Shown: positions 4,566 through 57,137, numbered from the whole stretch's first letter. The stretch is 62,133 bases of DNA, filler included, from Hausera hauseri (GCA_046269625.1; 10 parts of 10 records of this genome joined end to end with filler, not necessarily neighbours in it); one strand, 5' to 3'. The notes: generated by a model not told the origin, from the letters alone. Program-made: numbers and translations.

Positions 4566-4815
4566 CCATCCATGTGCTGATTCTCGCATATCATCAATCA
4601 TCATGACCGGCCGATCTCCGAATAAATCAGCGTGTCCCTAACAATGTTCACACGGCAGGCAGACTGGATGCGGGTGCGAAGGCCTACTTATTCTAACGGA
4701 TGAAGGGCAGCGCCGAAACAGGTTATATTCAAGTAGTATTACGGGGTAGCCCAGCGGTAGCAGCAAAACCCGTTTACGGCACCAGCATATTCTCTGTAGA
4801 TAAGGATCACCACAC

Positions 4816-8589: not shown

Positions 8590-8663
8590 GTGTGGTGAGT
8601 TCCTGGCGCTATTTTTACAGCCGGTGGTCGGGGTGTTTATTGTCCAGGATGTTTTGAGGGGCG

Positions 8664-9500: not shown

Positions 9501-9684
9501 CAGGCGTTTAGCCCGGATATTTCACCACCCCCTGCCCCAACCCAAATCAACGTGCATTGACGTCCCTGCGAGACCGGCAGGATGNNNNNNNNNNNNNNNN
9601 NNNNNNNNNNNNNNNNNNNNNNNNNNNNTTAATTAATTAANNNNNNNNNNNNNNNNNNNNNNNNNNNNNNNNNNNNNNNNNNNN

Positions 9685-11560: not shown

Positions 11561-11664
11561 TACTTTTGCGCCAACTTCAACATCGTTTGTAATAAGAGTT
11601 TCATGACACTATCATCTTTCAATTCCGTCCCGCCTGCTGCTTTTTCTACTACCGCTACTGCTCG

Positions 11665-12810: not shown

Positions 12811-12817
12811 GTCCTGT

Positions 12818-16409: not shown

Positions 16410-16438
16410 CTTTCTGTGATCTTCATTTCTCGTATGTC

Positions 16439-23101: not shown

Positions 23102-24687
23102 TGAAATTAAATAATCAGATATTTATTCGTTGAAAACAATTATTAAATATCAAAAATCTTTACGAAAATTTGTGAAATTATTTGACCTAATAGAAATTGC
23201 AATTATTTAAACAAAATTCTGTTTTTGTTCAAAATAATGACAAAGACGTCATTGTTGTGTTTATTGCTCTGTTTCAGTAGCAGATTTCAAATGAACAAAA
23301 CTGATAAATCATGTGAATGAATAATGAAATTTGTTGTCATAATAAATTTGTCAGAAAATTAGTAATTTTATTTGGTGTGCAACTATTCCGGTGAATTTTT
23401 TATAATTTCCTTATTACTTTACGTAATAAAATGTAATTGCACTAAAACTGAATTTTTCTTGTTAAGTTTCATAAAAGAACAGAAATTATTATCAGTAATT
23501 TTCAGTCTCAAAAATTAAAAACATTTTGTTACAAAACGTAATAATTATTTATATTTAATTTCTATATAGATTATAATTATATGATTAAACTAAGTACGGA
23601 CAATCCGTGTGATTTTGATAAAACTTGCATATGAAATGCAGTAATTTTATTTAAAAAATCAAACAAAAATGATATTTACTAAAGTTAAATGGCACAAATA
23701 GTTAATTTTGAAATTAAACAATTTTGTGATCATGTGCATCATTTGCTTAATATATTTATTTAATCATTCAACCATTTTTTGGATACATTGTGGCCTTAAT
23801 ATTGAAGATAGATTCGGTCTGGCATCTTTACTTTTCTTCCTTTTAACCTTTTATTGTTCATGTTCGATTAGAAATTTCTTCGCTCATTATTTGTGGTTTT
23901 TGTATCTTTGTATATATTTAACAAGTGAGGCCTGTGAGACAGAATTCTGAGCTCGTTGTGCATGAAAGTTCAATAGAAAATAGCTAACCAATTCTTCATA
24001 GACCACTCTCATTTCGGACACAGTTAGGGTATGCCAAGAGTAAGCGTTGGCAAGACTAGACGCGCATGTAAGTCAGCGTGTTTCGTGTTGTTTCCAAATA
24101 GCTTCTGATATTTAGTCTTAATATCCGGTGACGATAAAAACAATGATATTACCGTTGGCAGATTATTAAGTAAATTTAGTACTTCTGAAATCACGTTTAT
24201 CCACCCTTTAATAAAAAAAAAATCTAGAAAATGCAATAAGTGCTAGATGAATAGAGAGAGAGCGATAAATAGTGAAAANNNNNNNNNNNNNNNNNNNNNN
24301 NNNNNNNNNNNNNNNNNNNNNNTTAATTAATTAANNNNNNNNNNNNNNNNNNNNNNNNNNNNNNNNNNNNNNNNNNNNGGACGCAGAAGGAAAGAGGCTT
24401 CGGAAATTGTAATACTATATACGACTATGGATCATGACTCATCGATAGAATTTAACGTTCCGTAAAAACTTAAATCGATATTTGTCACATTTTGCATTTT
24501 GTGGTTATGAAATGTCATGTCTCATGCACATTAAATTCGTTGTTACAGTGGGTAAACTGAACAATTGTGGCACTCCGCAGCATAAAAACCAACACAATAC
24601 ATACATTTCAATTACAGATTTTGCGTAACATTACGAATAACAGATAAAAACCGCATATTAAAATTATGAAAACTCAAACTCGGTTAA

Positions 24688-27088
24688 CGGTTGTCCACTG
24701 GTCTAAATGGAATGGTGTTGTCTATGAGACTCTAAACATTCCCTATTTTTTTAAATAACTGAGTCAGAAAAAAACATACAATTTAGTTATATTTTTTTAA
24801 ATGCTATTTGTGCAATTGAGCGAAGATACGAAACTGCCCACGAGAGAAGTTAATTGGTATTTGCACATATCATCTATATGAAATTCCAAGCTGCCTTTAT
24901 TTTTTAGCTAAATTTGTGATGGTGCGTTGTGAAAGTTAGCTGCAGCACTCGTTCAAGAAGACAATGCAAAAATGTCGCTAATGAAGTGATTGGTTATGTG
25001 TATGAAAATTCTGATTTATCCGAAAGCGAAGATAATATATATGATGATGCTTCATCAAATGCCAGCGAGATGTCCGACATTCCTCAGAAAGTGAAGCATC
25101 AGCATCCCCCGCTGATATTCTGGATGTCGACTGTTTGACTACCATAGAAACTAGCTCTGACTGATGAAAGTGATAAGGATGATGAACTCATCCAAATCCC
25201 AATAAAAATCTTACTTCGGCTTCTCGAAGCGTCTGGCACACGACTCCTCCACCAAATCAAGGTCGCACAGCCACATAAAATATCGTAAAGTTTCGTGCTG
25301 GTCCACGTAATGAGGGTAATCCCTCAACTGAAACAGAAGCTGTACGTCTTTTTTTGGACACTATTCTTGAAGATGTCGTATATTATACAACCGACAACGA
25401 AAATGACAGGTTCTTAAATGGAATAATGAAAATCCGAGTTAACGCAAAGTTTGGAAGACAGTGGATCTTGTGGAATTGGAAGCTTTTATTGGTCTCCTAA
25501 TAGTCATTGGAACATTTAAAGCGAAGTTTCTAACTGTGGAAGACATGTGGTCTATCTTGAGATGGAATTCCTGTTTGTAGAGCCACAATATCAATGGAAC
25601 ATTTTCAGCAGATTAAATCAGCTATGCAATTTAACGACCCACTACGAGGGGACAAAGAAGACCATTTGACACCAGTGAGAGAGATTACGAGAGCATTTAT
25701 CAAGAAGCTCCAATTAATATATGTGCCCAGTGAGTGGTTGACAATCGACGAACAACTGTTAGAGTTACACGGACTGGTTCTTTTCAAACAATATATCAGC
25801 ACCAAGACTAGCAAGTTTGGAATTAAAATTATGTAGCTGTGTGATGCTCAACCCTATTATGCTCTCAATGCTCTGGTGTGTATCGGCAAGGGCTCCCTTT
25901 CACCAGGAGAAAACGTCACTATCAAAGGCGTAACTATGCACTTGATGCAACCCTATTTGAACACGGGTAGACACCTAACTGACGATAAGTGGTTTTCTTC
26001 TGTTGAACTCGCAGAAGAGTTGATGCTCAAGAAAACGTCTTACATTGGAACATTGCGTAGTAACAGCCGCGAAGTTCCTCCAATAGCCAGATCAATCATC
26101 AACCGCGCAAGAAAGGACACTCGAGTCTATTACAATGGTCAAAGAATCTCTGTCGTATCTTTCTGGGATAAGGGGACAAAACTTGTACTGTTGATAGACA
26201 CATTGCACCGGACTGTACCTGTTCCCCAAGACAATGGAAAGTGTGTCACGGTATTGGAATACAATCGCATGAAATCTGGTATGGATATATTTGATAATCA
26301 TGTCCGTGGATACTCATGCAAAAGAAAATGCAGATGTTGGCCTTATGCCATCTTTTCCAACCTCATTGATATAGAAACGAACAATGGATATATCATCTTG
26401 AGTGACTGGGTCAAAAGAAGCTTATAATGAGTTTCTGAAGAACGTGGACTATCAGCTTGTTGACCAGCAGATCAAGCGTTGCATGGAGGACTATCGACTC
26501 AAGCAGAGTGTGAAGCTAGCAATGGACTTGTTTGGATATCATGTTGTCAAACTTTCTTTGCCAACACTTCTGAATGACAGGAAGTCAATTAAGCTGGAGA
26601 AAAGAGATCGATGTACATATTACCCACATTCTAAAGACAGGAAAACATCTTGGGCTTTTCCGCGATGCAAGCGACCATTCTGCTTGTAGCAAAGAGTTGA
26701 TATGTGCGTTGCTTGTTCAAGAAATCCTTTCCAGACTGTTGCCATTTGAAACTTGTTGTCTATTTGTGTAATTCAACTTCTGTTAATTATAACCCTCTGA
26801 GTTCGTGAATGTTTCTTTATTTATACTGACATACAGTGGCTAGAATTGTTCCAAGAAATGAATAAATATATGACAATCCTCAAGAGTTCGACAGACACAG
26901 ACCACAGACAGATAAATTTCTCACAAGTATCTTAAATTGCAGATATCTACACGACTTTTTTTAGGAAAGTATAAGGGCAGTTATTCAAGAAAAGTTATAA
27001 AATTTCATCGCTCTCAGTCACTCCTACTCTAAGAATTTTTGTTGCCAAAATTCAAAGTGTCTGTCAGACCAAGACCAGAGGACAACCG
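24688..27088 (+). mobile_element. Full-length (2.4 kb) piggyBac DNA transposon, decayed
   Basis: TTAA TSDs at 24684-24687 and 27089-27092; 17-bp TIRs CGGTTGTCCACTGGTCT / AGACCAGAGGACAACCG (16/17 match). Confidence 0.93.
24929..26720 (+). pseudogene. piggyBac (PGBD) transposase pseudogene
   Basis: Acidic N-terminus, LTIDEQL, KFGIK, HLTDDKWFSS, YIGTLRSN, YNRMKSGMDIFD, C-terminal Cys-rich remnant; many stops and frameshifts. Confidence 0.9.
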
Positions 27089-33821: not shown

Positions 33822-35152
33822 GTTATTTGATTTCACTACTATGTCTTTTTGAGCATGACTTGCCGTTGGTTTCAGGTGGTTGTCAAGGACTTCTACTGGA
33901 TTATTTTGAACTGTCACTTGAAATCGGTTATGTTCTTGGGGTACTATTTGCCGATAACTCGGGTATTTACTAAATTCTTTTTGGAATTTTTGTATTAGAG
34001 TCTTGGGGTTATTGTCGGATATCGCATTCTGCATGTGATTTCTGGGTTTCCACTCGTGATTCCATCGTAACGAGTCATAGATATCTTTTATAAATTTGGT
34101 CCGTTGTCTTGCTGTCATCAGCTTAGAGAATTTGGATAGTTCACCATTCATGGCTTCTAGTATAATCTTAAATTGCGATTCGCGCAATGCTGACGGAAGC
34201 AGGCAACCTCTTTTCTGCATCAAGGTATTTTCTACTTGGCTCACAACAGCTGGGTTCCGGCTCAATTCTCAAATTCCAGCTATGTGTTCTTGCCTAATTC
34301 CTAGTCGCTCCAACGCTTCGTGCGCTCGGAATCCGGTAACATTATATCCATATAAACAATGGCTTATATCTTCTTGGATCTCCAAGAAATTCTTTCCTTT
34401 TTCGATCTGTACTTGTGTAATTCCTGTAACGTCGGGGAAAGTATCATTTATCCGCTCTCGAGGTGTGATTATTTTATTTATAATCTCTTTTCCATTAGGA
34501 TTTCTGATAGAGACTTCTATCCGAATATACCATCCGTCATCCTTTTCTCCAAAGTTTACGGCTAATGTCCGAATATTTCGGCCATCTGGGACTAATCTGT
34601 AAGATTCCTCATTTTGCTCTATTTCATCTTCCGATGGTTTCTGTACGGTGGTAGTGGCTTCATTACCTCTGTTCGCCACGTCATCTCGATCATGATTTTG
34701 GTCAGAAGGTCCGCAATCCTGAATTCCAGAGCATAATTCATGAGGCTATAGCAACATAGCTCATAAGTACTAAATTTCCACTGCTGTCCGTTTTGTATAC
34801 TCCAGGATTGCCCTACGATCCTGTATTGAATTTCTCCATCAGCGACATGTATGTACAACTTCTGATATGTCGGCTCGTAGGGAATCAGGTTCTTTAAAAG
34901 GTACGCCCGTGCATCCTTTGGGTTTTGCATGGCATATAATCAAACCAGTCCATTTTCTTCTAAACCCCATTTTAGTCCGTTTGGTATTTTACTCTCTTGG
35001 TTGAAATCTAGGTAGGCCTGGGTTTTCAGATTTTCTCCAATTTATCGATATAAACTCTAGGATAATGGTTTGAGAACAGTGGCGTGCTGCTATAAGAAAT
35101 CGTCGATATCATAATTGGAACTGACTGTTGGATTCTTTGCCTTCTCGGCCAT
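33822..35152 (-). pseudogene. Accessory ORF containing a DEDDh 3'-5' exonuclease-like (REX4/ISG20-like) domain
   Basis: ATG 35152 is in frame with ORF 34619-34930, then a frameshift leads into EVSIRNPNGKEIINKIITPRERINDTFPDVTGIT..KGKNFLEIQEDISHCLYGYNVTG..L..LGI. An in-frame TGA at 34269 joins it to the ORF 34265-33822. The ExoI acidic motif is degenerate. Confidence 0.55.
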
Positions 35153-35160
35153 ACTTACTC

Positions 35161-35185
35161 CTGCTGAAATAAAAATAAAGGTCAA
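35161..35185 (-). promoter_or_regulatory. Putative branch point and 3' splice acceptor just upstream of ATG 35152
   Basis: Minus strand reads TTGAC CTTTATTTTTATTTCAG CAG GAGTAAGT ATG. Confidence 0.5.
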
Positions 35186-35300
35186 TCCTAAGACAAATCA
35201 TCATTTTGAAACAAAACATTTTCTCTGTCTGATGATAGGATAACCCGATCTGTAGTTGTCAGGTTATGCCATCATAAAGTCCATCTTGGTGCCCTTTTAC

Positions 35301-36575
35301 CTATTTATCTCTCTTCCGATTTTTACAGCGCTTATTACACTTTTTGGAAACTAGAAAAATCATCGCTGTTAATATAACAAGAACGAAAATTGACAAACTC
35401 AATATGGCTATCGTCGGTAAACTGCTTGGTTCAATAGAACCTTTTGTGGTAAAAGCATTTTGCGTACTAAGATCTCTATACTTCATTACTTCGATCTTGT
35501 TGTCTACAGTCCGCACTGTATAAGTTTTAGGGTTCTTACCCTTTGCGGTGATTCTAACTATGTAGTCGTGTTGCGGTCGTAATTACCTACATTCAGTTTC
35601 CTGACTACTCTTCCTCAGGATCACAACTTGGTTGGTGTGCATGGTGCGATATTCAATTTTGACGTCTTGATTTAACGTCTCTTCAGCGAAAAATAGAATT
35701 TTATCGCTTTTTTCCAAAATATTAACTAGTATGCTTCCTGGCATTTCGTCCGAAGTGACCATTGTAGTATTGTGAGTTGTACTCGGAGCAGTGGACGGTT
35801 TTCTCGTAGTGGTTGAGAATGGAAGTTCCCATATTCCGTTTTTCGGACGATATACCCGTAAATAAGTACTTCTCTCTCCGGGGTACGTATCATACAAATC
35901 AAATTGCAGCCGATACACTTGTCCTAGTTGTAGTATACAGCATGAAGTAGATCGGCCTGTGGCCAAAAAGCAATACTTTCAGTTAGGAATTGAAGCATTC
36001 AATGGTATAAATCGGACAGAAATTTGTCTGTCTCCAGGCAGTTTCACCTTCGTTTTAATGCGAATACATCGGTTTTTAAAGTTCTTGTAAATCCCAATAA
36101 TGTTCTAGTCCAAAAGTTCTTTAAATGGGTTAGTGCTTCGAATTATTTTATCCGTTTTGGCTTGATTTTCGTTCTTTCGTAGAGGCATTCTTATTGAGAG
36201 TTCAGTAGTTATATAGGCTTGAGCTCCAAACTGATTAGAATAAAACATTTGAAATCCGTATCCGTAGACTTGTCAAAATCCAAATTACAACATCTTCTGT
36301 GCACTCCATACGGAAAATCACATGTTCTCATTGTGAACCCGGTTGCAAAAATTATTTAAAATTTCACATAACTCTGAATGGGTTCACTTGCTTCGAACAA
36401 GGCGCATGGTTTACTCCAATCCATATCGTATACTTTAAGTGATTGCATGTTTTGGATATCCCTTCGTCTTTCTGCATTTTGTAATCTTCCGGCTTAAGTT
36501 ATCGATTTCACCTTCGGTACATACGAAGCGATTAATGATAAGGCGAGAATTATCTATACATACGATATTGGTATA
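35301..36575 (-). pseudogene. Type I membrane protein downstream of integrase: signal peptide, Cys-rich domain, two FN3-like modules, S/T stalk, TM
   Basis: ISYV*IILALSLIASY signal-like segment in frame with integrase; CDFPYGVHRRCC; LQLGQVYRLQF and LRPQHDYIVRITAKG (FN3 LxPxxxYxVxVxA signature); STTTRKPSTAPSTT; TM IAILSLSIFVLVILTAMIFLV followed by a basic/Cys tail. Confidence 0.65.
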
Positions 36576-39500
36576 GTCACGATCGACGATGTTTTCTTTT
36601 CTTTATTTGTATAGTCTAATTTTGTTTTGTTCGAACGCAAATTGTAACGTTTGCTTGGCCTTATTTCCGTTTTAACTACTCTTTGAATCGATATGACCTC
36701 TTCCTTGCCACTTTTGTTTATATAAACTGTGGTTGGTGTAACATTAGTAACTTCATAAGGCCCTCTACCTGTCCTGGTAAGCTTAAGAGACATACCTTTC
36801 TTTGCTACCGGATAGTGTACGTAGGCCCCGTTTCCGGGTTCTAGAGCGTGTGGTTTAGCCTTCTTATCATACTGCTTCTTAAATTGTCCTTGGTATTCTT
36901 TAGATACGTCCTTGGCTATTCCCCAACACTTGTACAATCTCGATTGTAATACTTCGACAAAATTTTGCTCTAAGTCTTCCGTTCTTGTGGTGTAGGGAAT
37001 CAGTCCTAAATCTGTAGGGAGCACAGCTTCTCTTCCATACATCATAAAAATGGCGTGAATCCTGTCGCCCGATGTGGAGTAGTATTAATGACAAACTGTG
37101 TACCTTCTAAAAACTCATCCCAGTCTTTCTGGTCCTTTGCCACTACTGTCGATAAGATTCGTAAAACGGTCGCGTTCATCCGTTCGACCATTTCGTTACA
37201 TTGGGAATGATACGCTGTGGTGGTTAGTCGTTTAATTTCGAAAATCTTGGTAATTTTGTCAAATAAATCGCTCGTAAATTTCCTTCCTCGGTCTGTCAAA
37301 ATTTGTTCAAGTAACCCGTATCTGCAAATAATCTTCCGGACTACTACTTCTGCTAAGGTCTCGGCCTTTTGGTCTACTAACGCTATAAGCTCGACGAAAT
37401 GAGTCAATCGATCTTCACAGGTCAAAATGTATTTGTTGCTCTTGTGAGTCGTAGGTAATGGCCCTACAATATCCATAGACATTGCTTGCATTGGTCTATC
37501 GGGCACATCGATGGGTTTAAGCTCGGCGACGTAGTTTTTCACTTTCCTTTGTTTGGTTGTGCGTTCTTCGCAAGCGTTCACGCAATTTCTTACGTCGATA
37601 TAAATGCTGGACCAGCAGTACTTATTTAATATCCTTTCTAATGTCCTTTTCCACGACATGTGTCCGGCTAAGTATGAATCATGTCCGGCCATGAGTACTT
37701 CCGTACGCAATTCTTTTGGTGTGACTACCAATTTTCGTCCTTTTCGTTCGTAGTATAACACGTTTTTGTGGTTTAAATCTCCAACTACGCAGTATTTGTA
37801 ACCATATCGTCGTAGGTGTTTCCGTAACTGATGACCCTTGGGTGTTACGTTGGTGTCAACGAACTCGATAATCTGTTGTATAACCTTATCTTTTCGCTGT
37901 TCAACAACAATCTTCAATGCCTTATCAAGAGTGAGAGTTCGTTGTCGCTCTACGAAGTTTTCAAGGTGGGCTTTCCTCACTATCATAACTGCGCTTGTTT
38001 TAGTTTTAAATGTCGATAAGGCGTCGGCATCGACATGTTTACTTCCGGGTTTGTATTGAAATTCAATATTGTAACGTGAGAGTTCCTCAATTTATCTGTT
38101 AAGTCTACAGGTTGGATTATTTGCCCTACCCTTTAATGTCGTGATTGCCTTATGGTCAGTAACGATTATAATCTTTTGTCCATAGATCTACACGTTAAAA
38201 TGTCGCAATGCTTCTTTTACCTCTAGTGTTTCCAACTCCGTAACAGAATAGTTCTTCTCTGATTTCTTTAGGGAACGTCCTCCATATGCAATCGGGTGCT
38301 CTAGCTCTTCATCTTCCCGTTTCTGAGCTAATTCATATCCGATACCTTCTTTACTGGCATCCGTTTTGATTATAAACGGTAGGTTGAAGTCAGGATATCT
38401 TAAAACGGGTTCACTAGTCAGAATTTTTTTCATTTCGTCAAAAGCTTTTTGTTCAACATCGGTCCATTTCCATTTGATCCCTTTTTAAGTAAACGATACA
38501 CAGGTACGTTTATCTTTGCATTGTCTGGAACATAAGTAGCATAATACCCACACAGCCCTAACCAGTGTCTCAATTCCTTCTGATTCTGCGGTTACAGGCA
38601 ATCCGATATCTTACTTAATAATGATTTATGCGGTTTCGATCCTCCTTCTCCTACTATATGTCCGAGGTACGATACAGCATTCTGAGCCAATTTGCACTTC
38701 TTGGGATACAGTTTCAGTCCAGCCTGCTCTAGTCTCATAAGTGTACCCTCGATAACCTTTAGATGGTCCTCTTACGTTTTCAATGCGATCATGATGTCGT
38801 CTAAGTAGGCAAACGCGTGTTCCATTTTCATTAGCATTTTATTTATCATACGAGTAAAAATTGCGGGTCCGGTATTTATTCCAAATGGCATAATATTAAA
38901 TTTGTATATACCATCGTGTGTTTTAAACGCCGTTTTGTAACGATCTTCCGCTTCTATCTCTACTTGCCAACATCCAGATTGTAAATTGAGCGTGGTAAAC
39001 CATTTAGCTCCCGAAAGTCTACCCAAAGCTTCCTTTACCGATGGCAATGGGAAGGAGTCCTTCATCATAAGTGTGTTTAGCGCTCGATAGTCGATACAGA
39101 ATCGGTGCTTAGCAGTACCTTTCTTCTTAACCATGAGTATAGGTGAGTACCAAGATCGGTAGCTTGGTCTAATTATGTCGGCCTTTAACATTCGTTCAAC
39201 TTCCTTGGTTATCTCTGGCCTTAGCGAGCGTGGAGGAGGGTACCATTTCGGCATCTTTTGATCCTCCAAATCTATTTCGTCGTTCGATCCAGGCTTTTTC
39301 TTATGTGGAATCGTGAGCCTTAAGGCTCTGGCTCGGCCAATGTCTTCTTCGTTTCTCGCGATAATTCATCTGTAGCGGCAAAGTAATTCGTAAAATCGAC
39401 AATATGTTTCCGGTGAAAATTTAGTTTTAACATTAGGTGGAAATTCGGCACCCTTATACGGTTTCTCTTCAATGATATGTGATGATACTCTATACATGTG

Positions 39501-40200
39501 TCCTAGAGTGGTATTGGCGTACAGTTTGATTGGAGTGGGCGCATTATTCGCTATTCTAATTGGTACTGGGCCTGTTGGTACTCTTGTCAAGATATTGCTC
39601 AGCACGAGGTTTTGTGTCGAGCGATTCTTTTGGTTCAAAATATATTGGCTGATCGTCATCCTGGCGTATCTGATCATATATTAGAATTTCCGTTCTGGGT
39701 GGTATGGTTTTATCTACTGGAATCCACACTTCTCCAATCCACACTTGCCTGCGTTGAAATCGATTGCTATATTAATAATTGTCTCAATAAGTCACATCCT
39801 AATACCACATCATCCGTTAGTTGGTCCATTACTGAAAATTCATGGTGAAAAGATTGTCTTATTATGTGAATTTCTGGTTTCCAACGGAATTTACTTTTCG
39901 ACGATTGTCCAAAAGCTCCAATGCTTCTTGGGTGTGTCGTGGGAGGAGGATATATCATTGTTTCCGTAGGAACTGTGGGATCGATTCATATTTTATCAGT
40001 GATATTTTAGATCCTGTATCTATTAGTGCGTAAACTTCCCAATCTTGCAGTTGAATTTTTGCGAAGGGCCTACCTTCAATTACTGTACCGTAATAACTCG
40101 GTGCTATTTTGGGTTTTCGTATCGTAGACACTTTGTATCCGTTGATGGTGACTTCAGTGGTTCCAACTGGCTGCTTGACTAACTGTCTTAACTCTCCAAT
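36576..40200 (-). pseudogene. pol: Gypsy pol (protease, RT, RNase H, integrase), frameshifted
   Basis: YALIDTGSKISLI (~40020), VLGCD, RFCIDYRALN, MPFG, YLDD, KTDAS, H..AGH, MDIVGP, LTDRG, VERMN, GPY. Confidence 0.93.
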
Positions 40201-40673
40201 AGTTCGTTATTTGTACCATTCGCGTTTTTTAATCTTGGGTTTTTATCCGGCGGCTGAACATCTTGGTTTTGGAGATTTCGTGACTCACATCTTCGAGTAA
40301 ATATTGATTGCGTTTCGTTTGGCTTAGGTATTCTAGGTGAGTAAATCATACCGTGGTTGTCGACTGCTGATTGATGGTGTGGAGCCGAGGTCCTCTCTGT
40401 TTCGTGGATCTTGCGCAATATCTGATAGAGTTTTTTTCCTTCGTAGGGATCCTCTAAACTAAACGGCTTCCGATAGATGTCTGTCTGGCACGAGCTCGTA
40501 GATTGTTTCTCGCAATCTTCGTATATAGGTGCTGTTGTCGGCAATATTGGTAGTAGTAGTTTCATAACAGAGTAATTTTTGTGCCTTCTCGGCCTAGGGA
40601 TGACGTCTCCTCCCTTAGGCTCGTCATCATCGGAATCATTTCTTCGTGTCTTACTGACGATGAATTTCTGTCT

Positions 40674-42545
40674 TTAATCGAATATGTGTCTTTTACGTTT
40701 TCGATTATGGTTGCCCACATGTCGTTCCACATCTGTTTTCCATGTACCTTCTTCATAACCCTTTAAGAATTTGCCGAAGGGTGTAATAATAGCCGTTAAA
40801 ATTTTGCACAAAAATCCTGTTAAGGTGAATATCTCGTATCCATTTATGATTGCATGAATTATAGCTAGAAATTCTGACGTGGCTTGTCCGAATATCAGGA
40901 ATCGTCCCCAGATTTTATACAATATCTCTGTAGTTACTTTTTTATAGTAACCAACTCCAAATAATGACTCACATTTCGTCTGGCAGCGCGAATCCTCCAA
41001 TATTGTATACATTGCTCTGTTTAATTCATATGTACGTTGGCGGGGAAAAGCGAGAAATTGTCTAAACGCCTCTACTTCTTTTGGTCGGTAAATACCTTTT
41101 ACGGCTGTATCTTGAAATTTATCATCGGTTATTCCTTTAATCAGGTTTGTTCCTGTCAGCTTGGTAGGTGGTGCGATAATACCGCCGTTCGGTATACTTA
41201 CCCAGTCGGTCTCGCTACGTCTGAACATGGGCTCTCCTAAGCTAGTTTTACAGTCTCTCAAAATTGTCGGGTGAGTGGCGTTTGCCAACAACACTCTGGT
41301 AATCGGTGTTACTAATCTCGTTACGTCCTGATATATTACTGGAAGTTCTTGTATACACCTCTTCTTTTCTACATTAATCGTTACGTCTTTCTTTTTACAT
41401 TCATAGGTCAATAAGACCTCTCCGGTTACTCGTTTAAAAACACCCTCCTTCATCGGAATTAACGGTGATGCCAACTCGAGATTGGCGTATATCAGGGCCA
41501 GTTTAGTTCTCATGATTTCCAAGTCCAATTTACAGTCGTTTGTTATCCTTTTGTGGTTTGTCCTTTATAGTAGAAATAGTGGTCTTTGTTCTTCAAATAG
41601 TCTTCAATCCGGATGTCCTGAATCGCGAGTTTGAACGTTCTAGAATTTATTTCTCTCTCGGCTACAAAAAATGCTTCATAGTTGGTGGCATACATTACGA
41701 CGTCGCATCTGGTGAGCATAGCTTTTTTTTACAAATTTTAATCCATGAGTATCAGAAATCAGTATCGTAGGTATTGACTGTTCGGCTACATCTTCTCGTG
41801 TTTTAGAGTTAGTTTCCATGCTACTTATTTATCGTTTTCCTGCCGTTTCATTGAACTTAAGCTCTTTAATCTTGATAAAGTTGCAATCGGTCTTGGCTGG
41901 GGGTTCCCAAATTTCTACGGAACTTCAAAACGAGCATGTGCCATCTTGAATGTGGCACTTATGGTTCTCGGTGTAAAGTTTAGTAACACTATGTACATCA
42001 CTTTCTGTATACTCATTTTGGTTTCGTAAAAATCCACTACCACGACGTTTGACTCTAATCCCTTTCCTGTATCGTATTCCGAACTGTGACAATGTCCGAT
42101 ATGCATATCCAGTCTTCCTGCTGCCACTTTATACACTGTCATTATTTTCCCTTCTTGCATTTCCATTTCCGTACCTCCCCATTTTATTCTGCCCGTTTCT
42201 CTAGCTTGTTTACAATGCTGTCGCTTTAAATTCATCGAAATTAGCGAAGTTGTTGGCTTAATTATTGACGAGTGTCCATGTACCAGTCCATAATGGAAAA
42301 CGGTGCGAGATTGCCGCAACATACATTCTACTTCGTCCAAGGTAAGTAGTTAGCGTTGTTGATATAATATATAACTTTTCTCTTTTGTCTCTAATCTGTG
42401 GGGCCTCGCATCTTCGCACATTTCCAAGTCCATTAACGATTAATTTTGGCCAAGTCCGAATTTGTCACAATCATATACTGTGACTGCGCCCATTTGTCTT
42501 ATTAACATCATCATGGTCAAAAAATTGATAAGCCAGTTTGATTCA
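40674..42545 (-). pseudogene. Chuvirus-like / gB-type (class III) fusion glycoprotein
   Basis: Signal WLINFLTMMMLIRQMGA then VYDC..SL..LEMC; ECM..SRTVFHYG..HSS; HC..A.ETG; AAG..GHC..NVVV; KC..DGTC..W.PP..C; DCKLDLEI; GEV..YEC; CIQELPV..P.TRVL; GIY; FP..R; W..FLIFG and TM. The Cys and motif spacing follow chuviral G. Confidence 0.8.
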
Positions 42546-43801
42546 TTTGCTCTGCTATTTCCAGTCACATTTCGTAGCAGATCTCCGAATCTACTGTTAT
42601 CGAAGAAGAATCTATTTTGATGTTCTTCTTCTTTTTCGAATAGCTTCGTCCAATCCACTTCTCGGGACAGTTTCCTTGCAGCCTTCCTTGCCAAGCTAGT
42701 AGTCTTGTTAAATTCACCTCGGTTCGGGTTGGTTTTGATGTCCAGATATAGCAACACTTTTCTCAATTCCTCTATGGTGTTTTCTACCATAATTTTCTCG
42801 ATTATCAATTTACCGCTTAGAGTACTTCTGGTTAATTTACACCGAAGGCCTTTCATAGCCTTTGCGGCGTTCGCTATGGCTTCCTCTTTCTCATCTAATA
42901 CATTACCGCCGAGGCTAGAGTGATTTACTATTCGTATCAGGTCTTTCATAAGTTCGTTCAGTTCCTCATGATCCTCACTAAAGGTGGGTATAGACATTTG
43001 TTTCAACTCTTTGATTAAATCTCCATTGTAATCGATTTCCTCTCGTGGTTTCCGCGGCCTACCGACAGAACGCTTCTGTTCTGTTACAGCAGATATATTG
43101 CCATTTATGGGTACTAAATTTTTATCGTATTGTTCATTATCTTCATTTGTCTGGAGGTACTCGAAATATACTGTTGGATCTCGGACTCTTATTATTCGCC
43201 CTACCTGCTGTTCTGCTTTCGCCCTCCGTATAGCCTCTTCCTTTGTTTCATCGATAGTGGTGGCTACCACTAACCGGTTTATTTTACCAGGAATAATTCC
43301 GACCTCTATCAATAATTCTGACTCGTCTAGTATACTTCCTCTAAAATAAAGTCTATAGCTCAGCTCCTGGGCATATCCATTATCCCTTATCCATAGTAAT
43401 ACATTTATACCAAGGAGTGCGTAGTAAATTCTTGTTCCTTCTCGTACATCCAGTCTGATACTATCTTTACTAGGATCCTTTCCTCAGCCTTTACCTTTAA
43501 GATTTTAGCATATTCTTTGAGTAAAAGCTTAGGTACCGTACTGGAAGTCGTACCTTCACTAGCTAACTTAGTTAAGGTAGGGACTAGATGTCTCAATTGA
43601 TTTTCAGTGAGGTTCATTTTAATTAATTGAATTAAATCTTTTTCGGTTTGTACCGGATCCAGCAGCATTCCTACGTTGAACCTTTGGTCAGGAGAATATA
43701 CCTCCATTTCATCCAGTTGTATTGGGGTTTTGGGATTCTCGGCAATCATTGCGTCTAAATATGCCTCCCATTCTGTTTCATTATCGTTATCCGGGAGTTG
43801 A
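42546..43801 (-). pseudogene. Unidentified helical ORF (ORF-X) running in frame into the glycoprotein signal peptide
   Basis: ORFs 43405-43749 and 42440-43312 are linked by one frameshift (INVLLWIRDNG..ELLIEVG); contains an AT-hook-like GRPRKP. Confidence 0.5.
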
Positions 43802-47626: not shown

Positions 47627-50600
47627 TGGTTACCCGGAAATTTGGGACCCGCCGCTGCGAGGCTGAGGTCCAGGCTGCCCATCCTGCGCCAGTGGGTCAG
47701 ACGGCGCCTTTCGCTTCAGCCCCGCAACACGACCCCAGGCACACTGCCTCTCCATTCTCTATCTTCTTTTTCTTAAATAATAGCTATGTCCATANNNNNN
47801 NNNNACACACTGCGACCATTCACACTTTCATTTCTACCCTACTCCACTCCTCTGATTTCTACCTTACTCACAACGGATATCTAGTACCCCTCGCTGGAAC
47901 TCTACAATCTTACTCAACTCCGATCTGTCTTCATATTCATTTCCGTATCCGTGATGGCATGGATTCGTCACCCACAATTGACACCACGGACAAACTCACC
48001 AAACAACAAATCCCCATCATTCACTTACCCAAACACAAAGCTTCCAACATCCCTACACAACATACACTCCTCACTCATTCACCTTGCACAGAATACTTTC
48101 TCGATAGCCAAAACTCTACTCAAATGTGGTTAAAACTGCACCAATTTTGGCTCCAATCGCAAAACGTCGTCAATTTTTTAGCCAAAGCCAACAGCCTCTT
48201 TTTCCACTTATCAGCTTCCACTAAAACTAAAATCACCAATATAATCTATATCCTTCAACACACTGACCCATATACACAACTCTATAATGCCGTCCTCAAG
48301 CTTACTGAGTCTTCAATCGATTCAATCATTCAAAGGTTCTTTAACGACAACGCCATAGGCCCTCAGAAGTTTCCTGAATTCCTACACACATTCTTGTCTC
48401 ACCTCAACACCCTTGGCGTAACCTCTGAACACAGTCCCGAGCTTCTTCGTCGCTATTTCTTAAATGCATTGCCCCTTCAAATAAGAGCTTTTCTAACTAT
48501 GGTTGAAGACTCCATGGCACTTGACAAGCTAGCCGAATTGGCAGGCAAGGCACACGAAGTGTTGCACTCATACGCAGCATTAACTATCTCTGCAGCATTG
48601 ACAACAGATAAACAACAACAAAATGCAGTGCTGCTGCAACAAATTGCGCAATTTTGCACAGAAAATGAAACATTACAAAAAACAATCAACAATATTAACG
48701 ACAAACTAAACGCAATAACACTACCTCGACGGGGTTTTTCTAGGCCTGCTTCCCCTAATGCGTTTGATCAACGTCAAAGACGGTCGCCTTCGCCCGCGCG
48801 GTTATTAATTTGATATTATCATAGCAAATTTGGCAACAATGCTCAGAAATGCTGCTTCGGTGGTAAATTTTATTCCCCTGGTTTTAATACAAGCAACATT
48901 GTTTGCATCCACCACTCAAAATTTGGCACAAAAGCGCAAAAATGCTTACCTGGCTGCACCTACAGGACACACAATAAGACCAACACCAATAAGTTCACAC
49001 AAAACAGTGGACTAAATTCACCAGCTCCAAAAAACTAATTTTTCCGCTAGGACACACGGCAAGTCCTAACAAAAGCAACAACCAGCAAATCATAGTCGGC
49101 ACATTTCTTATGCTGTAGACACTTTCTTATAGACACCGGCGCAGCAATCTCTCTACTGCCACCAACACAACACATGCAACACAATTACACGTCACAAAAG
49201 CAACTATTCACTGCGTCCGGTGAACCTTTACAAATCTTTGGAGTTAGTACATTAACATTCACTTTCCTACACTTTACAAACACATTCACATGGAAATTTA
49301 CAATAGCTAATGTACACACACCTATACTGGGTTCAAACTTTCTGTCCCACTACAATTTACTTGTAGATTGCAAACAATGTTCCTTAAAGAGCAGACATAA
49401 TCTCAATCAAATCAGCAGCATTTCGATGACCACCCCGGCGATCGCGTCCAGTAAGTCAATACTAAAGAAAACGACTTCCGGTTTGAATTATTTTTATAAT
49501 CATTTATTATATAGAAATTTTTATTACGGTAACAAATACGATATTGCCAACTGCGTGGCACCCATTACTAGTAGCACAGCTGCCAACACCATCTTCAACA
49601 CCAACATTCTGCACCAAATACCACCTAGTCGCAACACCTTGTATATAACTCATACCTCAACTGCATCCAGTCACGATGCATCGACACCTACGGATTTGTC
49701 ATCATTGCCTTCTGATCTACAGCAATACATTTCGTCCTCCTGCACGCGTCTGCTGCAAAAGGACGAATCATTTGTACCACCTCAATCCACCTTTCATCAC
49801 ATAGTAACAGCACATCAAAGACCAATACGTCAAAAGGTCCGTCCGATATTGCCTCGTCGCAGACAGGCAGTGGAGGCTGAGTTTCTCGACCTTGAGAAAT
49901 TAGGCATAATTAGAAGATCCAAATCCCCCTGGTCTTCGCCACTGCATGTGGTTCCAAAAAATGGTACCTTTCGCCCATGCGGTGATTACCGCTAACTTAA
50001 CACCATAACAACAATGGATGTTTACTCTCTACCATTAATCAACGACATCCTTCACAGGCTCCATGGTGCGACCATCTTTTCCTGCATTGATTTGCACAAA
50101 GCATACGACCAAATTCCTGTGGCCCAAGCAGGCATTCCGAAAACGGCTGTAATTACACCTTTCGGCCTTTTCGAGTACCTCTTTATGCCTTTTGGACTCC
50201 GTAGTGCTTCCCAGATCTTCCAAAGGCAATTCGACACAGTTCTTTCAGGCTTAGACTTCGCCTATCCCTATATTGATGACATCTTAATTGCATCATCTTC
50301 CTCGAAGCAACACTCCGAACACCTACGTTTGATCTTCCAATGCCTGCACCAAAACAACTTGCAAATCAATTTCTCCAAATGCTCTTTCTTTCAACATAAG
50401 GTCAACTTCCTAGGATATGTTATTAGCTCCTCTGGACACTCACCTCAGCCAGACCGCATCACACAGCTCAGAAACATCCCGCTTCCACGTACATCAACAG
50501 AGATGCGTTCTTTCCTCGGAACCTTGCACTTTATTCATAAATACGTTCCACATTGCTCCACTCTAACCGCGCCATTTGCATCACTAAGCTCCTGCAAGAA

Positions 50601-50990
50601 GAAGCAGCCTATTCAATGGACCGCCAATCTAGTCAGTGCTTTCGATCGCCTCAAAGACAATTTAAAAACTGTGGAAATCCTAGCCTATTCAGACTCCCAT
50701 GCAGAACTTTTCTTAACCACCGATGCATCCGCAACAGCTTCAGGTGCTATCCTCCATCAAGTTAAAAATGGATACCATGAGCCATTGGAATTCTTTTCTC
50801 GAAAATTCACAGCACAAGAGCAAAAATATTCCACCTTTGACCGAGAGTTGCTTGCAATGGTCCTTGCCGTAAAACACTTTAAACATCTCCTAACTGCACG
50901 AACTTTTACCATGCAAACGGACCACAAGCCCTTGCTTCAAATTCTCACCATGAAATCGCCTTCTCCACGTCAGGAGAGGCAAATATCGTA
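47627..50990 (+). mobile_element. CsRn1/Boudicca-like Ty3/gypsy element (leader, gag, protease, RT, RNase H), lightly decayed
   Basis: PBS-like TGGTTACCC at 47627; gag LDKLAELAGKAH and duplicated CHCC motif (YHSKFG..AQKC; CIHHSKFG..AQKC..GC); FLIDTGA; RPCGDYR; YIDD; TTDAS; TDHKPL. Confidence 0.9.
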
Positions 50991-51136: not shown

Positions 51137-52418
51137 ATCCTCCAGAATGCATGTTCTGCAGAGTAATCCTCAGCGAGGTGTACAGATTAACACCATGTTT
51201 ACATATGGTTTGTCTATTTTGTATAGAGCGAATTCGATCACAGGCCCATCCTACACCTTATTGCCCTGTTTGTACATATGAAATCAAATATTGTATTCAT
51301 CATGATGTATATCCATCTGATGCTGACCAATCATTACTGGACGCCCAAACCTTCGACGTCATTGAACCAACGGATCATACCACCTATTATTACACTTGGA
51401 ATGTATCAACTCCATTTTCCATTCCAAATTTTCAATTACACGTGTTGCCTATGTCAAAAAACCTAATAGAATAGCTTACCAATTTAACTGTTGTAATGCT
51501 GAGTACTGTGCCCATTGCTATCAACTAGAATCTCATCATCGATATTTAATCTGTAGCATATGATATTTTTGCCCTCAATTCATTTACTCGTATTTTCATC
51601 ATCCTAGAAGAGCTCTCCCTACTATTACTAATGCACCAATTCCTCAAATACTTCCAACAAGATACTTCCGGTTAGAACAAGAAGCATCAGTTCGAATCGA
51701 ATTCCCAATTCATAAATTTGACCCTTCTACATTATCTAGACCACCACCATTTACTTTTCAGACACCCTTACCCCACATAAATGTCATGACTCTTTTACGA
51801 CAACCTTCTTCTATACCACACCCGCGCTACCATCCAGAAAGAGTTACTAGATCGTTGCCTGAATTACCAGTACCTCTACCCGCAATAATACCTACACCAA
51901 CTATTTCTTACAGTCCACCACTATCAGTATCCTTACAGGAAGATTGGTTCCCTGTCTTCAGTAAATGTCCAATCGACCTTATATCTGACCTAGCCCCTCC
52001 TGATCTATGGGCAACATTACAATCTATCTGCTACGATCAACTTCCTACCTATGAATGTACTATATGTCTTACCGAAAGAATAACGATGGTTCAGTTTCAA
52101 TGTAACCAAAAATTATGTGCAACCTGTTTCAATAAACTTCGTTCCCAATCCCTCAAATCAATCAATCCGGAAGATGCCCTCCATATGACCTTCCAAAATG
52201 GCATTTCATGCCCATATTGCCGGCAACAATCAGTATACTACCACTTCTCCTATACCTACGACAACCGTACCCAACGACTATGCCACTGGATGAATCCAGT
52301 AAACGATGCGGCACTGACAATCAGACCCAGAAATCTTAGCTTCATCAATGCCAGTACTCAGAGTGATCCGGAGGACCGAATCCTTCTCAAAAGGGGGAAA
52401 AATGTTGAGATACTTTAA
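51137..52418 (+). pseudogene. Triple-RING-finger protein with a Pro-rich linker, ending on the PPT
   Basis: RING1 CMFC..PCLHMVCLFC..CPVC; RING2-like CCLC..FNCC..YCAHC..ICSI*YFC (across frameshifts at ~51420-51470); RING3 CTIC..QCNQKLCATC..CPYC; ORF ends DPEDRILLKRGKNV over the PPT. Confidence 0.75.
52389..52402 (+). promoter_or_regulatory. Polypurine tract (PPT)
   Basis: AAAAGGGGGAAAAA immediately before TGTTGAGATA. Confidence 0.8.
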
Positions 52419-52478
52419 CAAAGTTGAGACACTTTAAATGTTGAGATACTTTAACAAACTTGAGACACTTTAACAAAC
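52404..52478. repeat. ~19-bp tandem repeat (gttgaga(t/c)actttaacaaa) x4 at the LTR start
   Basis: Directly visible. Confidence 0.9.
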
Positions 52479-52734
52479 ATTTATGTTTAATTAACATTTG
52501 CGTGACTAACAAACATTTTATGATTATTGAACATTTATTGACCATATTTTGAATTGATTATTGTATTGATGTATTAGTGCGTGTATACAATCTTTTATAT
52601 TACTTTCCCACTGTCTTCATTGTTGAGCTCCATTTGATAAGCATTTTCCCATACTGTTATTTGTGAGTAAATTGTTACCCAATCTTTTAGTGGCTGGCCG
52701 AGCAAAAGTGCAAATTATGGAAAGTAGAAACTTC

Positions 52735-52900
52735 AATTCAAAATTAGAATGAAGTAAATATATTAATGCAAATGACGCATATCCTGAGAGCAAATTCAAA
52801 ATTAGAATGAAGTAAATATATTAATGCAAATGATGCATATCCTGAGAGCAAATTCAAAATTAGAATGAAGTAAATATATTAATGCAAATCCTGAGAGCAA
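52735..52900. repeat. 58-bp tandem repeat, ~3 copies, in the LTR U3
   Basis: aattcaaaattagaatgaagtaaatatattaatgcaaatga(c/t)gcatatcctgagagca repeated. Confidence 0.92.
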
Positions 52901-54549
52901 ACTTCAATTCGTAGAAACGTTAATTCAAAAATAGAAGTTGTAAATATATTGATGTAAACGCATACACATCCTGAAGACCTGATGATTTAATGTTGTAAAT
53001 ATAATGAAGCACATTCTGAAAACATAACGGCAATTTCAAAATTACAATAACGAAAATAACTCTGACGTCAAACAGAATAATACAAATACTGTAAATGAAA
53101 ATGAAAATCTTAAAAATAGAAAAGGACATTTTTAAAATCAAATTATGATATGTCACCGGAAAAAACAGAAATTCAGAAATAGAAAATGACACATTATAGC
53201 GTTACAAGAATTAGTATATAAGCAGAGAGTAATTTACGAACACAATTATCATTGATCGTTGATAGAATTCGAAATCATTGTTGGTCAATTGGACAACATT
53301 AATTCAAATAATTTTGAAGAAGGTCAAGACAGGTCGTTCAACAATTACAAGTAAACGATAGCTATTCTAAGTGGTTGTTGAAGAACATTTATTTAGCAAG
53401 ACGAGAAATATACAAATTTCCCATTCGAGATATTCAACCATAGAAATAAAAGAAAATATATATAGTCATCAATTATCACCGAACATTGAAGAATTCCCAT
53501 CTCGCTAACTAGCTGTCACATTGAATCTGAAAACGTTCGCATTATGGCCCAATATTCGTCTAATTACGAAGGAGCAAACGAGGAAGTTTCGAATGGTATA
53601 TTATTTTATATATTCTTATCATTTCCACTTTTGTTCATACCGCCACAAAGTTTGCGTATATAAATTCTGTACTTGTTGTATATTTATAATAAATGTAGTA
53701 ATATCTTAAATGAAGTTTATTATGATTGCGACCACGATTTGTTGAGTTATGATAAAATGGTAATATGATCGAAATTGTGATACGGTGGAGGAACGAGTAA
53801 TTTCATCTATTCTTAGTTCTGTGAAGTTTCCTGTTAATTCTATTATGAAAATATCCGAAGAATGAATATTTGCGATCGAAAGTTTCCCTAACAATTGTAT
53901 TTATTACAGATGGTAATTATAGAACAATTGAGTTAATTGATAGGCCATGTGGAAGTATTCATGGGTCGATTTATGTTATCAGGATATTTTATCAATACCG
54001 AGAGTTATTTTTATTGTTTCAATTTGGATCGGAATAATTATATCCACCCGACGAAGGTAGAGAATTTATTAATGTCGAATTCAATCTTCATATTAACTCG
54101 TGATGATGTATATATCATAATAGGGGGTAATGTATCTGAAAGACGATCGATGTTTTTTGATCATACCAAGCTAGTACATTGACTAACTTAACTTCTGATA
54201 ATTCTGACGATTCATATTGGTTTTATAGCTGTACAGTAATGGTATTTGATTGAAAGCAGACTTCTTTGGTATCGGAGATTCTGTACTGAACCAATTGATA
54301 GTTTTGAAGGAAACGACCGGGTATTAGATGTAATTTGTGATTATATTTACAGAGGAGTTTTATCGTAATTTATGACCTTGGAAGAAATTTACAATACTAA
54401 ATGAAATGTTATACTGATTTTACAAATTAAGAAATAAAATGGAAGATTGTTTTAATAATCATCGTAATAAATATATTATTAATATTCTTTAAAATGACAT
54501 ATATTACAACCATACTACATGAGTAGTTATGTGACGTACAATGTGCAGA

Positions 54550-54855
54550 CTTAGTGAAGAGATATACTCGTATAATGGAGCTCACAGGTGTGCACATTCC
54601 CCTATATCTCAATAGATTTGTGTATATAAATTTGTATGTGGTAGATAACCATTATTGGAATTGACAAATAGACTTATTCACTAATTGAAGGATCACTGGG
54701 ATACTCACGTATAATGTACAAACTTGTTAAGAAGTATACTCGCATAATAGGGCCCACATGTATGCACCTTCACCCATATCTCAATAAATTTGTATATGGT
54801 AGACGGAATTGACGAATGATTTTATTCATCAATCGAAGGATCACTAGGATACCCA
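54550..54855. repeat. Diverged ~160-bp direct duplication within the LTR
   Basis: tatactcg(t/c)ataat..tgcac..tatctcaata..gaaggatcact(g/a)ggatac occurs twice. Confidence 0.75.
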
Positions 54856-55202
54856 AATGAATGAGAATGTTTATAATTTATAAAGTAGATGTTATAAAGG
54901 GACATCAGAGGACGGCATATGATTCTTAGAGAATTGGTACTTTGACGGACGACCTACGAATCTTAGAAAACTGGTTGTTTTAATAGAAAATAGATAAAAT
55001 TAAAGGAGATAAACCCGTCACACTAAAAGAAATAACAAGAATTAAATGGCCGAAACTAAATATTTGATAACTAATAATTAACCTATAGGAATGTTAAGTC
55101 TGGACAATAGATGTTATGAGTACGCCTTCAGAGAGACTCGAATTTATATGTGGGTACATAGCTAAGGTTTGGAACATTAACCCCTGTATCCAACATATAA
55201 AC

Positions 55203-55220
55203 TGGTGCCCCGAGTGAGGA
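55203..55220 (+). promoter_or_regulatory. Primer-binding site complementary to the 3' end of elongator tRNA-Met
   Basis: TGGTGCCCCGAGTGAGGA; animal elongator tRNA-Met ends ..TCCTCACACGGGGCACCA (from memory, 17/18 complementary). Confidence 0.85.
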
Positions 55221-55305
55221 CACCTTTCACTATATAAGAAAGGATTGTGACTGACAAAATAATTGATAATTTTAGGAGAAATTTTACTTGGATTTTGAAA
55301 TTTAG

Positions 55306-55595
55306 ACAATAGATACGGACCAGTGCAATGTGAAATTTGCTTCGGACCACTGGGCAGGCACTATGCACTATTACTGTGCACACATATTATGTGTGTCAAT
55401 TGCGCGGACCGTTGGCTATCGAAGAGCCAAACGTGTCCTTTTTGCCGAAGGAAAATAAGCTCATACCAGTGTCGGGGAGCCACCGTGGTGGTGATTCCAG
55501 ATGATGAAGAAAATGAGCAAGAAAATGAAATGGAGGAGGACCCGAATGAGCTCTATGTGTTAGGACCAAATCAACTTGTACAAATGCCTATTTGA
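55306..55595 (+). CDS. Small RING-HC protein with acidic tail (no in-frame ATG before the RING; probably spliced)
   Basis: CEIC..LCTHIMCVNC..CPFCR; in-frame stop at 55296. Confidence 0.75.
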
Positions 55596-55837
55596 TTGTG
55601 TATTAAATATAGATTGTATAAAACGGAGTTATGGGCTGACAATTTTTGAAGCTGTTTAAGTTAGAACGAGTGATGAATTAGTCGATTTAAACGAACAATA
55701 CGTGTATGTCTCAAGTTTCCTTAGGAAGCGGTCTGCAAACCATGAGCGGGGTAAAAAGGAGGGAAATGATAAATAATACTGGTTTAATAAATTAAAGTCT
55801 AAGGAAATGGATAAGAATTAAATAATATTGATTTCAG

Positions 55838-56547
55838 GTTGCGTTATATGCCAGAGGTTTCCGGGATTCAAGAAAATACAAAAGAGAAAATTAACTTTCA
55901 ACGGAAAAAGAGAGATCGAACATTTAGCGGAAGAAGGACTAATATTGATATCTAAGAAAGAAAAAAAGTATGTCAAATGTACTATATGCTTACAAGAAAC
56001 GTATTGGTTAGAAAACCTTGATCAACGATTTCCAAAAATATTACATAACAACAAGTGCGAATACTTAGTAAATAGAATTTTCGACAAACATTCCAAGAGA
56101 CAATGCAGAATACAATTCAATATCGGAGAACTATATGAATGTTATCAAGATAGTCCAGTAGCAACATCAGTACTATCAAGACATCCTATCAAACAAGAAA
56201 ATATATTACAGTATATCAAACATCGGACGGAAACTCAGCCAGACTGGTCGCCAAACGTATTCGAATTATGTCAGAATTTAAATTTTATCCCTCCAGAGAA
56301 AGAAAGAGAACCTGAGCGAAATATTCTTGACAATCTTTACCTTCGTGATTTGGAATGCGTGATCTGCTATGTGGATGTAGCACAAGTCATTTTCTTACCT
56401 TGTGGTCATCTGAAAACATGCGAGAAATGTTCAAACCAAACGATGAATTGTCCAGTTTGTAGGAGTATTATAGAAAGACAAGTGACGTATTTTCAGTTTT
56501 CAGAGGAAATTAGCGAAATAACTTTGGCAGATATGGACCTTGATTAA
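55838..56547 (+). CDS. IAP-like protein: divergent BIR plus C-terminal IAP-type RING
   Basis: RKLTF..LAEEGL..VKCTIC..W..H..CEYL (Cx2Cx18Hx3C); CVIC..FLPCGH..CEKC..CPVCR. Confidence 0.78.
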
Positions 56548-56628
56548 TAATTAATATAAATTTATTTGAATAAATATTATTTAGTTTGTATGAATTTGCT
56601 GTGATAAAGTTAAATAAACTTATTGTAG

Positions 56629-57137
56629 AACCATCGGTTATCAACAGTATGACTCTAGCCAACCTTAATGAGTGGGCAGTTCAAGTAATGACGATAAAGA
56701 ATCAACCACCTAAATTAGCATATGAATGGTACAGATTGTATAATAACCCATTACTCGACAGGATAATCGAGTTGGGATATTCTAAACATTTGACGATGAT
56801 CGCTATCAAAACTGATGAGAATGCAGAATATGAAACATTGCCCAAGATAATTACTGATATATACCTGATGCAGCTAATGGATGGTGATTATTATCACGGA
56901 GTTCAATGCTTGATTTCGATATTAAAAGAAAAAGAGGAAGAAGTAAAAGAGAGATGTATAGATCTTACCCGTACAGTTTGGATCTGTATAAATTGTAGGA
57001 AAAATCAAGCAAACATAACTTACCTACCGTGTGGACATATTTTTCATTGTAAAAAATGCACTTCTGCACACTCGCTGAATCCGACATGTGTTATGTGCAA
57101 ACTGCCTATAAATGAAGCGTGTACTGTATATATATAA
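56629..57137 (+). CDS. IAP-derived UBA-like plus RING protein
   Basis: NPLLDRIIELGYS..YETLPKIITD resembles the XIAP/cIAP UBA; CINC..YLPCGH..CKKC..CVMC..VYI is an IAP-type C-terminal RING. Confidence 0.72.

Follow-up and report, generated by a model that had tools for sequence, protein, structure and literature searches.

Within a window of 62,133 nucleotides from Hausera hauseri (GCA_046269625.1; the window is the whole stretch of DNA analysed, in which contigs are joined via N44-TTAATTAATTAA-N44 linkers), the single contig 33822-43801 (9,980 bp) carries on its minus strand a retroelement whose envelope (env) gene precedes pol. This contig very probably represents the interior of a multi-copy Ty3/gypsy element, now decayed, whose env before pol is of class III; most likely it is a divergent Burro-like member of the GAG-ENV-POL elements, with gag and long terminal repeats (LTRs) beyond the contig ends. 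The env-before-pol order is real and no artefact; it is of an already published kind, to which the contig adds a divergent dead member. An earlier note on this DNA had implied that the order was novel, which it is not, as it has been published for Burro (PMC6431247) and for the GAG-ENV-POL errantiviruses (PMC13524379).

Read along the minus strand, the contig holds an accessory block, the glycoprotein G (PF24664), a stop-free linker, protease (PR), reverse transcriptase (RT), RNase H (RH), integrase (IN), a module running from a signal to a transmembrane segment (TM), and two open reading frames (ORFs). The earlier note had placed the element at 36576..43801; the order accessory block-G-pol is indeed present there, but coding sequence runs beyond 36576 to the opposite contig end at 33822, and 43801 is merely where the contig ends, so that both ends sit in coding sequence. 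A GC content of 0.36-0.43 and a positive A-over-T skew are kept along the whole contig, with no composition break. The contig contains no LTR-sized repeat (its longest repeat pair is 29 nt at 72%), no CCHC knuckle in any minus-strand frame and no purine tract with TG inside the G-protease linker, in agreement with the earlier observation that no zinc knuckle, LTR or polypurine tract separates G from pol. With three frame changes and four stops in G, three stops in RT and two in RNase H-integrase, this copy is unable to make its proteins in its present state.

A Pfam scan of the minus-strand frames identified RVT_1, RNase H (PF17917/PF17919), Integrase_H2C2 and rve in gypsy order, and no BEL/Pao families in the contig pol. 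By its PR-RT-RH-IN order and its gypsy-type RNase H and integrase families, pol is Ty3/gypsy (Metaviridae), as had been thought from first inspection of the sequence. Gypsy-type Pfam sets are borne by 94 RT homologues, and pol identity to the nearest relatives is only 34-46%. A frame change lies near 37050, within RNase H-integrase. The spacer between protease and RT occupies the position of Burro's dUTPase-like region, and no Pfam match to a dUTPase was found in it. A search of viral contigs gave a single weak RT locus (27% identity), which was set aside.

The identity of G rests on several comparisons. The family PF24664 (Monjiviricetes_fusion, cut-off 27 bits) matches at 42544-41915 (53 bits) and 41564-40677 (77 bits), and tblastn of relatives against the contig G gave E values down to 2e-50. 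A profile of 74 G sequences matches only herpes glycoprotein B (gB) in the PDB (39/39). Moreover, the G model of the intact relative P0007 (predicted local distance difference test, pLDDT, 81) resembles both gB (E 1.6e-13) and chuvirus G (E 3e-43). This P0007 model demonstrates the class III fold, which is predicted for the broken contig G via tblastn (E 5e-16 and 4e-41); together with PF24664 in the contig copy, the fold comparison bears out the class III identity proposed earlier. The gene had also been described, when read through its stops, as a complete glycoprotein from signal to TM with the chuviral-G/class III Cys pattern. The family assignment stands, but completeness does not: the frame changes near 41990, 41730 and 41560 and the four in-frame stops interrupt it, its membrane segment falls ~10 residues short of that in 6 of the 7 relatives measured, and its signal peptide is internal, as the upstream ORF 42440-43483 enters it in frame.

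The stop-free half of G, used alone as a HMMER query, gave 167 matches, 150 of them listed; a word-seeded search with G gave none. Twenty G relatives, selected for rank and length, were domain-scanned (P0008, a fragment among the top ten, was left out). The protease follows G in one ORF in 11 of these 20, including eight of the nine top-ten relatives that were scanned; the others of the 20 comprise one with integrase then G, one with a BEL-type domain then G, one with RT-RNase H then G, and six without a pol domain. The cluster members P0151 (4,844 aa), P0154 (3,003), P0156 and P0254 (4,099) likewise have the protease after G. In the G tree (59 rows of 113 long enough), the contig G nests among 13 rows that form a 99/97 clade, eight of them G-protease polyproteins, apart from the stand-alone Gs of ~650 aa; this clade lies inside a larger one (99/99) to which all 13 G-before-protease polyproteins of the tree belong. 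The order is thus a trait of the lineage, as the earlier note suspected. As a check that is in part independent of G, RT leads back to the same polyproteins: seven of its eight best matches among 102 candidates are of the G-before-pol kind, and a quick RT tree (62 rows) places the contig as sister to five of them. The pol trees were built without BEL/Pao RT, and the fetched proteins include no named Burro sequence. It should be noted that P0002 (HBK71150.1), a full polyprotein with gag, G, pol and membrane module, bears the label of a protein from a Flavobacteriaceae metagenome-assembled genome; it probably stems from animal DNA that was assigned to a bacterial genome during binning. In P0117, immunoglobulin domains precede a PF24664 glycoprotein, a fusion that may represent a gene captured by a host or one joined in error.

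We also examined the accessory block that precedes G. A profile of helix plus ubiquitin-like (Ubl) sequence, taken from the block that separates G from gag in P0002 and P0006 and that is also present in P0154 and P0018, scores it at 22.4 bits when read across its frame change, against a maximum of 10.2 in 1000 shuffles; a four-relative profile matches 43635-43462 with 10.0 bits, where shuffled sequence reaches at most 1.9. The second half of the helix+Ubl profile weakly matches ubiquitin-like chains of ISG15/UHRF1 (E 0.05-0.5, 5 of 22 rows). By homology to the relatives' block, a putative ubiquitin/SUMO-like domain precedes env in the contig, its Ubl label coming from these weak matches. The GRPRK motif near 43063 we take to be AT-hook-like. 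The helical stretch 5' of G occupies the site of the relatives' Bcl-2-like domain, which lies directly before G in P0001, P0007, P0018 and P0254. A single-sequence model of the block reached a pLDDT of 36, and an Atlas search with the block gave no usable match. Taken together, the block corresponds to the relatives' post-gag accessory block and is not gag; as the relatives carry this block after gag and before G, gag is probably off the contig. A CCHC or Retrotrans_gag domain is N-terminal to G in 5 of the 14 relatives checked (P0002, P0006, P0009, P0013 and P0097), the others beginning later. The earlier statement that G sits where gag should be is therefore not upheld.

Downstream of G, one TAA is followed by a linker that stays free of stops in the G frame for 161 codons, and the protease motif LIDTG is reached at 40026, ~650 nt past the G stop. 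The protease does lie downstream of G across coding-like sequence, as had been reported, with an env-to-pol gap of ~0.5-0.65 kb. The linker matches no Pfam family, no gag family and none of the fetched relatives' proteins. A change into the protease frame occurs near 40200. Just before it, at 40230, stands an A-AAA-AAC heptamer in slippery phase, which could be a candidate -1 frameshift site; the -1 frame meets a stop 7 codons on.

To the contig we aligned run X1, possibly the source sample, whose depth yields no copy number. Here, 19,599 X1 contigs were found over 30 of 30 bins, 1,030 of them at at least 99% and 6,529 below 90% alike, and the 3' ORFs are covered like the remainder. Given that these contigs cover all 30 bins and are mostly 85-95% alike, every part of the contig belongs to an old multi-copy family.

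Burro/GYPSM1 are giant gypsy-like LTR retrotransposons of planarians that encode gag-Ubl-BCL2-env-PR-RT-RH-IN in frame, and decayed copies with stops and frameshifts occur in Dugesia japonica (Arkhipova and Yushenova 2019, PMC6431247). We considered as Burro-like features, among others, a Ubl domain and a BCL2-like domain before env, env in frame with pol in a giant ORF, a dUTPase-like PR-RT region, a length >25 kb and a planarian host. According to the Burro section of that paper, the contig shares with Burro a Mononegavirus-like env before the protease (in Burro, in frame between gag and protease), a Ubl accessory before env, gypsy PR-RT-RH-IN, extra ORFs and decay. It differs in that BCL2, BIR, ankyrin and MATH were not detected in the contig, and in its post-integrase membrane module, which is absent from the Burro section text of PMC6431247. 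Moreover, the contig has one protease motif and its relatives up to six. As a separate observation, P0151, P0006, P0004 and P0001 carry three to six aspartic-protease motifs per polyprotein, some after integrase, and P0151 has ankyrin repeats, as Burro does. NERVs of nematodes reportedly have a continuous gag-env-pro-pol ORF; we know of no Ubl or Bcl-2 block in them.

The text of Chary and Hayashi (eLife 2026, PMC13524379) describes, for Nematoda, Bryozoa and Platyhelminthes, GAG-ENV-POL elements whose env is of the gB type, and for two mites ENV-GAG-POL elements. The former are defined here by a class III env, env at most 2 kb upstream of pol, gag upstream of env and multiple copies. Of these features, the contig bears the class III env, the short distance from env to pol given above and the multiple copies. 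It thus resembles these errantiviruses in its multi-copy nature and in a Ty3/gypsy pol that is preceded by a gB-type env, whereas the elements of PMC13524379 are intact and LTR-tested and the contig element is dead and partial. A YQE...EC motif of the Schmidtea ENV rows of that paper is found in 9 of 158 G relatives and is eroded in the contig G; the eight carriers in the G tree all fall within, or were found through, the contig's G clade. By eye and by this one short motif, the Schmidtea rows resemble that clade, so that the host is likely to be a flatworm. The nematode ENV rows, also judged by eye, are without the motif. The words 'fibronectin' and 'Burro' do not occur in the text of PMC13524379. 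Two further systems are cited there: the nematode NERV, with a flipped ENV-POL order in a metavirus (Sacco et al. 2022), and mosquito BEL/Pao elements whose chuvirus-like glycoprotein is of the same family PF24664 (Dezordi 2020). Unlike the latter, the contig has a gypsy-type pol and its env 5' of pol, and the BEL-type relative P0022 (DUF5641 then G) falls outside the contig's G clade.

Several observations weigh against a Burro-like GAG-ENV-POL assignment. Gag and LTRs are unseen in the contig, and a three-sequence profile did not detect Bcl-2 likeness in this copy. The TAA after G and the frame change near 40200 part G from the protease, so this copy does not by itself show a single ORF; the single polyprotein that the earlier note thought possible is encoded by intact relatives, and database ORFs favour fused forms, a selection effect. 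The phylogeny of pol is likewise divided: the sister position in the quick RT tree has a support (SH-like approximate likelihood ratio test) of only 84, and a careful RNase H-integrase tree (45 rows) leaves the contig unplaced, outside an 87/95 clade of six G-before-pol rows, although the five best RNase H-integrase BLAST matches are rows of that clade. Finally, none of the X1 contigs listed spans the G-protease junction, and X1 contains only 40% of the words.

The long branches of the contig (0.86-1.05) and its failure to join the clade in the RNase H-integrase tree could reflect an independent env-before-pol lineage not derived from Burro, which obtained G and the accessory block by recombination from the Burro-like group and has a pol of other origin. 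GAG-ENV-POL elements are also not monophyletic according to the text of Chary and Hayashi (PMC13524379). We consider such a lineage unlikely, since the best RT and RNase H-integrase BLAST matches are the same polyproteins that were found via G, the RT tree gives a sister position, and the post-integrase membrane topology is shared with those polyproteins. Nesting, adjacency or misassembly could also have brought the 3' env of one element beside the pol of another, with the LTR and gag lost. In favour of this are the stop and frame change that part G from the protease, a linker without homologue and the lack of any listed X1 contig across the junction. Such an origin is very improbable, because an accessory block and not an integrase lies upstream of G, no stop interrupts the linker in the G frame, composition is unbroken, no LTR repeat is present, the nearest G relatives all share the order and only 1% of aligned X1 contig sequence passes into unlike DNA.

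A gag-less design, in which the accessory block or the G-protease linker serves as capsid in the manner of the ENV-GAG-POL elements with a short gag in two mites (PMC13524379), is hardly credible. It would account for the lack of CCHC in the contig, for a coding-like 161-codon linker without family match and for the several relatives' ORFs that also start after gag. Against it, the accessory block matches the one that follows a CCHC-bearing gag in P0002 and P0006, the contig simply stops at 43801, and the linker has no gag family match. We retain the reading of the contig as the interior of a decayed Burro-like GAG-ENV-POL element, whose features are collected in Table 1.

Table 1. Features of the element on contig 33822-43801, in window coordinates. 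Segments were chosen as open frames, so the contrasts with expected stops are partly selected.
Feature	Position	Strand	Basis and remarks
Accessory block, helical first half	43423..43800	-	126 codons, 0 stops against 8.8 expected; leaves contig at its end
Accessory block, remainder: putative ubiquitin-like half, GRPRK near 43063, helical stretch	42545..43408	-	In frame with G
Class III (chuvirus-G/gB-like) envelope glycoprotein G, internal signal, C-terminal membrane segment	40677..42544	-	PF24664, tblastn
Linker following one TAA, open in the G frame	40191..40673	-	161 codons without a stop (8.9 expected)
Aspartic protease, LIDTG at 40026, broken 3' of the motif	39820..40206	-	RVP E 9e-4; weak tblastn to P0254, P0004
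Protease-RT spacer	39370..39780	-	tblastn segments of P0002 and P0154; homologous to relatives' spacer
Reverse transcriptase, YLDD 38807-38796	38481..39365	-	RVT_1 E 2e-31; 3 stops from 39617 down
RNase H and integrase (zinc finger, core, C-terminal part)	36557..38466	-	PF17917, PF17919, PF17921, PF00665; tblastn; 2 stops
Predicted type-I membrane module	35304..36583	-	Hydropathy, stop depletion; broken
Two coding-like ORFs, 35155-34622 and 34637-33825	33825..35203	-	Run off contig end; first preceded by hydrophobic segment

The two 3' ORFs contain 4 stops against 11.4 expected and 1 against 18.3 expected, and match neither Pfam nor the fetched proteins. The adjacent contig (43902-50990) does not belong to this element; on it, a decayed gag-knuckle plus protease stretch lies at 45132-44207 on the minus strand and a second gypsy pol at 49096-50988 on the plus strand; its knuckles at 45132-44881 were considered as the gag of the element and rejected, being on a separate contig with their own protease directly behind. 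Another gypsy element (9685-17648, minus strand) has the canonical order in long open frames, namely a CCHC gag, PR-RT-RH, integrase, a 311-aa ORF (11668-12600) and an env-like ORF of 641 aa, which has an RTKR site and by eye looks F-type, with no Pfam F match. Among the animal contigs, 4566-9584 is bacterial-looking: its GC content is 55%, and it encodes an alpha/beta hydrolase and an autotransporter (PF03797). The assembly is therefore mixed. Further contents are an NSD-like histone methyltransferase at 18211-23122 (minus strand; several near-contiguous ORFs with PWWP, PHD and C5HCH; best matches 45% to an unnamed protein and 32% to one of an oyster, which do not decide the host), a DDE_Tnp_1_7 transposase fragment, presumably piggyBac-type, at 25837-26424 (plus strand), and three RING-finger ORFs at 51564-57134 (plus strand).

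The module that follows integrase comprises a signal-like segment (36583-36527), a weakly FN3-like region (~35660-35520; Pfam fn3 E 0.067, under the cut-off), a TM (35405-35349) and a short basic tail. By hydropathy, a matching signal...TM topology closes the single ORF of P0002, P0004, P0151 and P0154, and all four clade polyproteins that extend beyond integrase in the hydropathy scan possess a signal-ectodomain-TM module; P0254 has two such modules after integrase, by eye. FN3 clusters were found in the Atlas for the P0153 module at 0.87, which is a lead only. Profiles of the relatives' modules scored the contig at 0.1 and -0.5 bits, below shuffled maxima of 5.3 and 6.1, so no sequence homology was found in this comparison. 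A C-x-L-x-P motif is common to the contig and four relatives, but it was derived from those sequences and is no independent test. The module diverges much faster in sequence than G. No description of it was found among the papers searched, although figures, Repbase, Grohme's extended data and further supplementary files of PMC13524379 may show one.

From hydropathy and general knowledge of viral polyproteins, we propose that an active element would have made one polyprotein threading the membrane of the endoplasmic reticulum (ER). Gag and the accessory domains would be cytosolic, the internal signal would send G into the ER lumen, and the TM of G would return protease-RT-RNase H-integrase to the cytosol; a second signal, located after integrase, would export the FN3-like ectodomain, anchored by a TM of its own. 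Cleavage by signal peptidase would release both luminal N-termini, and the cytosolic parts would be separated by the element's protease. As a gB-like trimer, G would then fuse membranes, carrying particles between cells.

In this scheme, the weakly FN3-like type-I membrane protein encoded 3' of integrase may act in attachment as a protein in its own right. We tentatively suggest, as a possibility still short of being likely, that Burro-like elements are two-glycoprotein retroviruses, whose giant polyprotein is the source of two surface proteins: a class III fusogen located before pol and, after integrase, a separate FN3-like protein that serves in attachment or as a receptor decoy. The proposed split would be comparable to that of herpes gB and its partners, or of paramyxovirus F and HN; for reverse-transcribing elements, we found no description of such a division of labour. 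The fast divergence of the post-integrase module fits a host-facing protein. If the module were displayed on particles, it would provide a testable model of target-cell choice by invertebrate retroelements whose fusogen lacks a receptor-binding partner.

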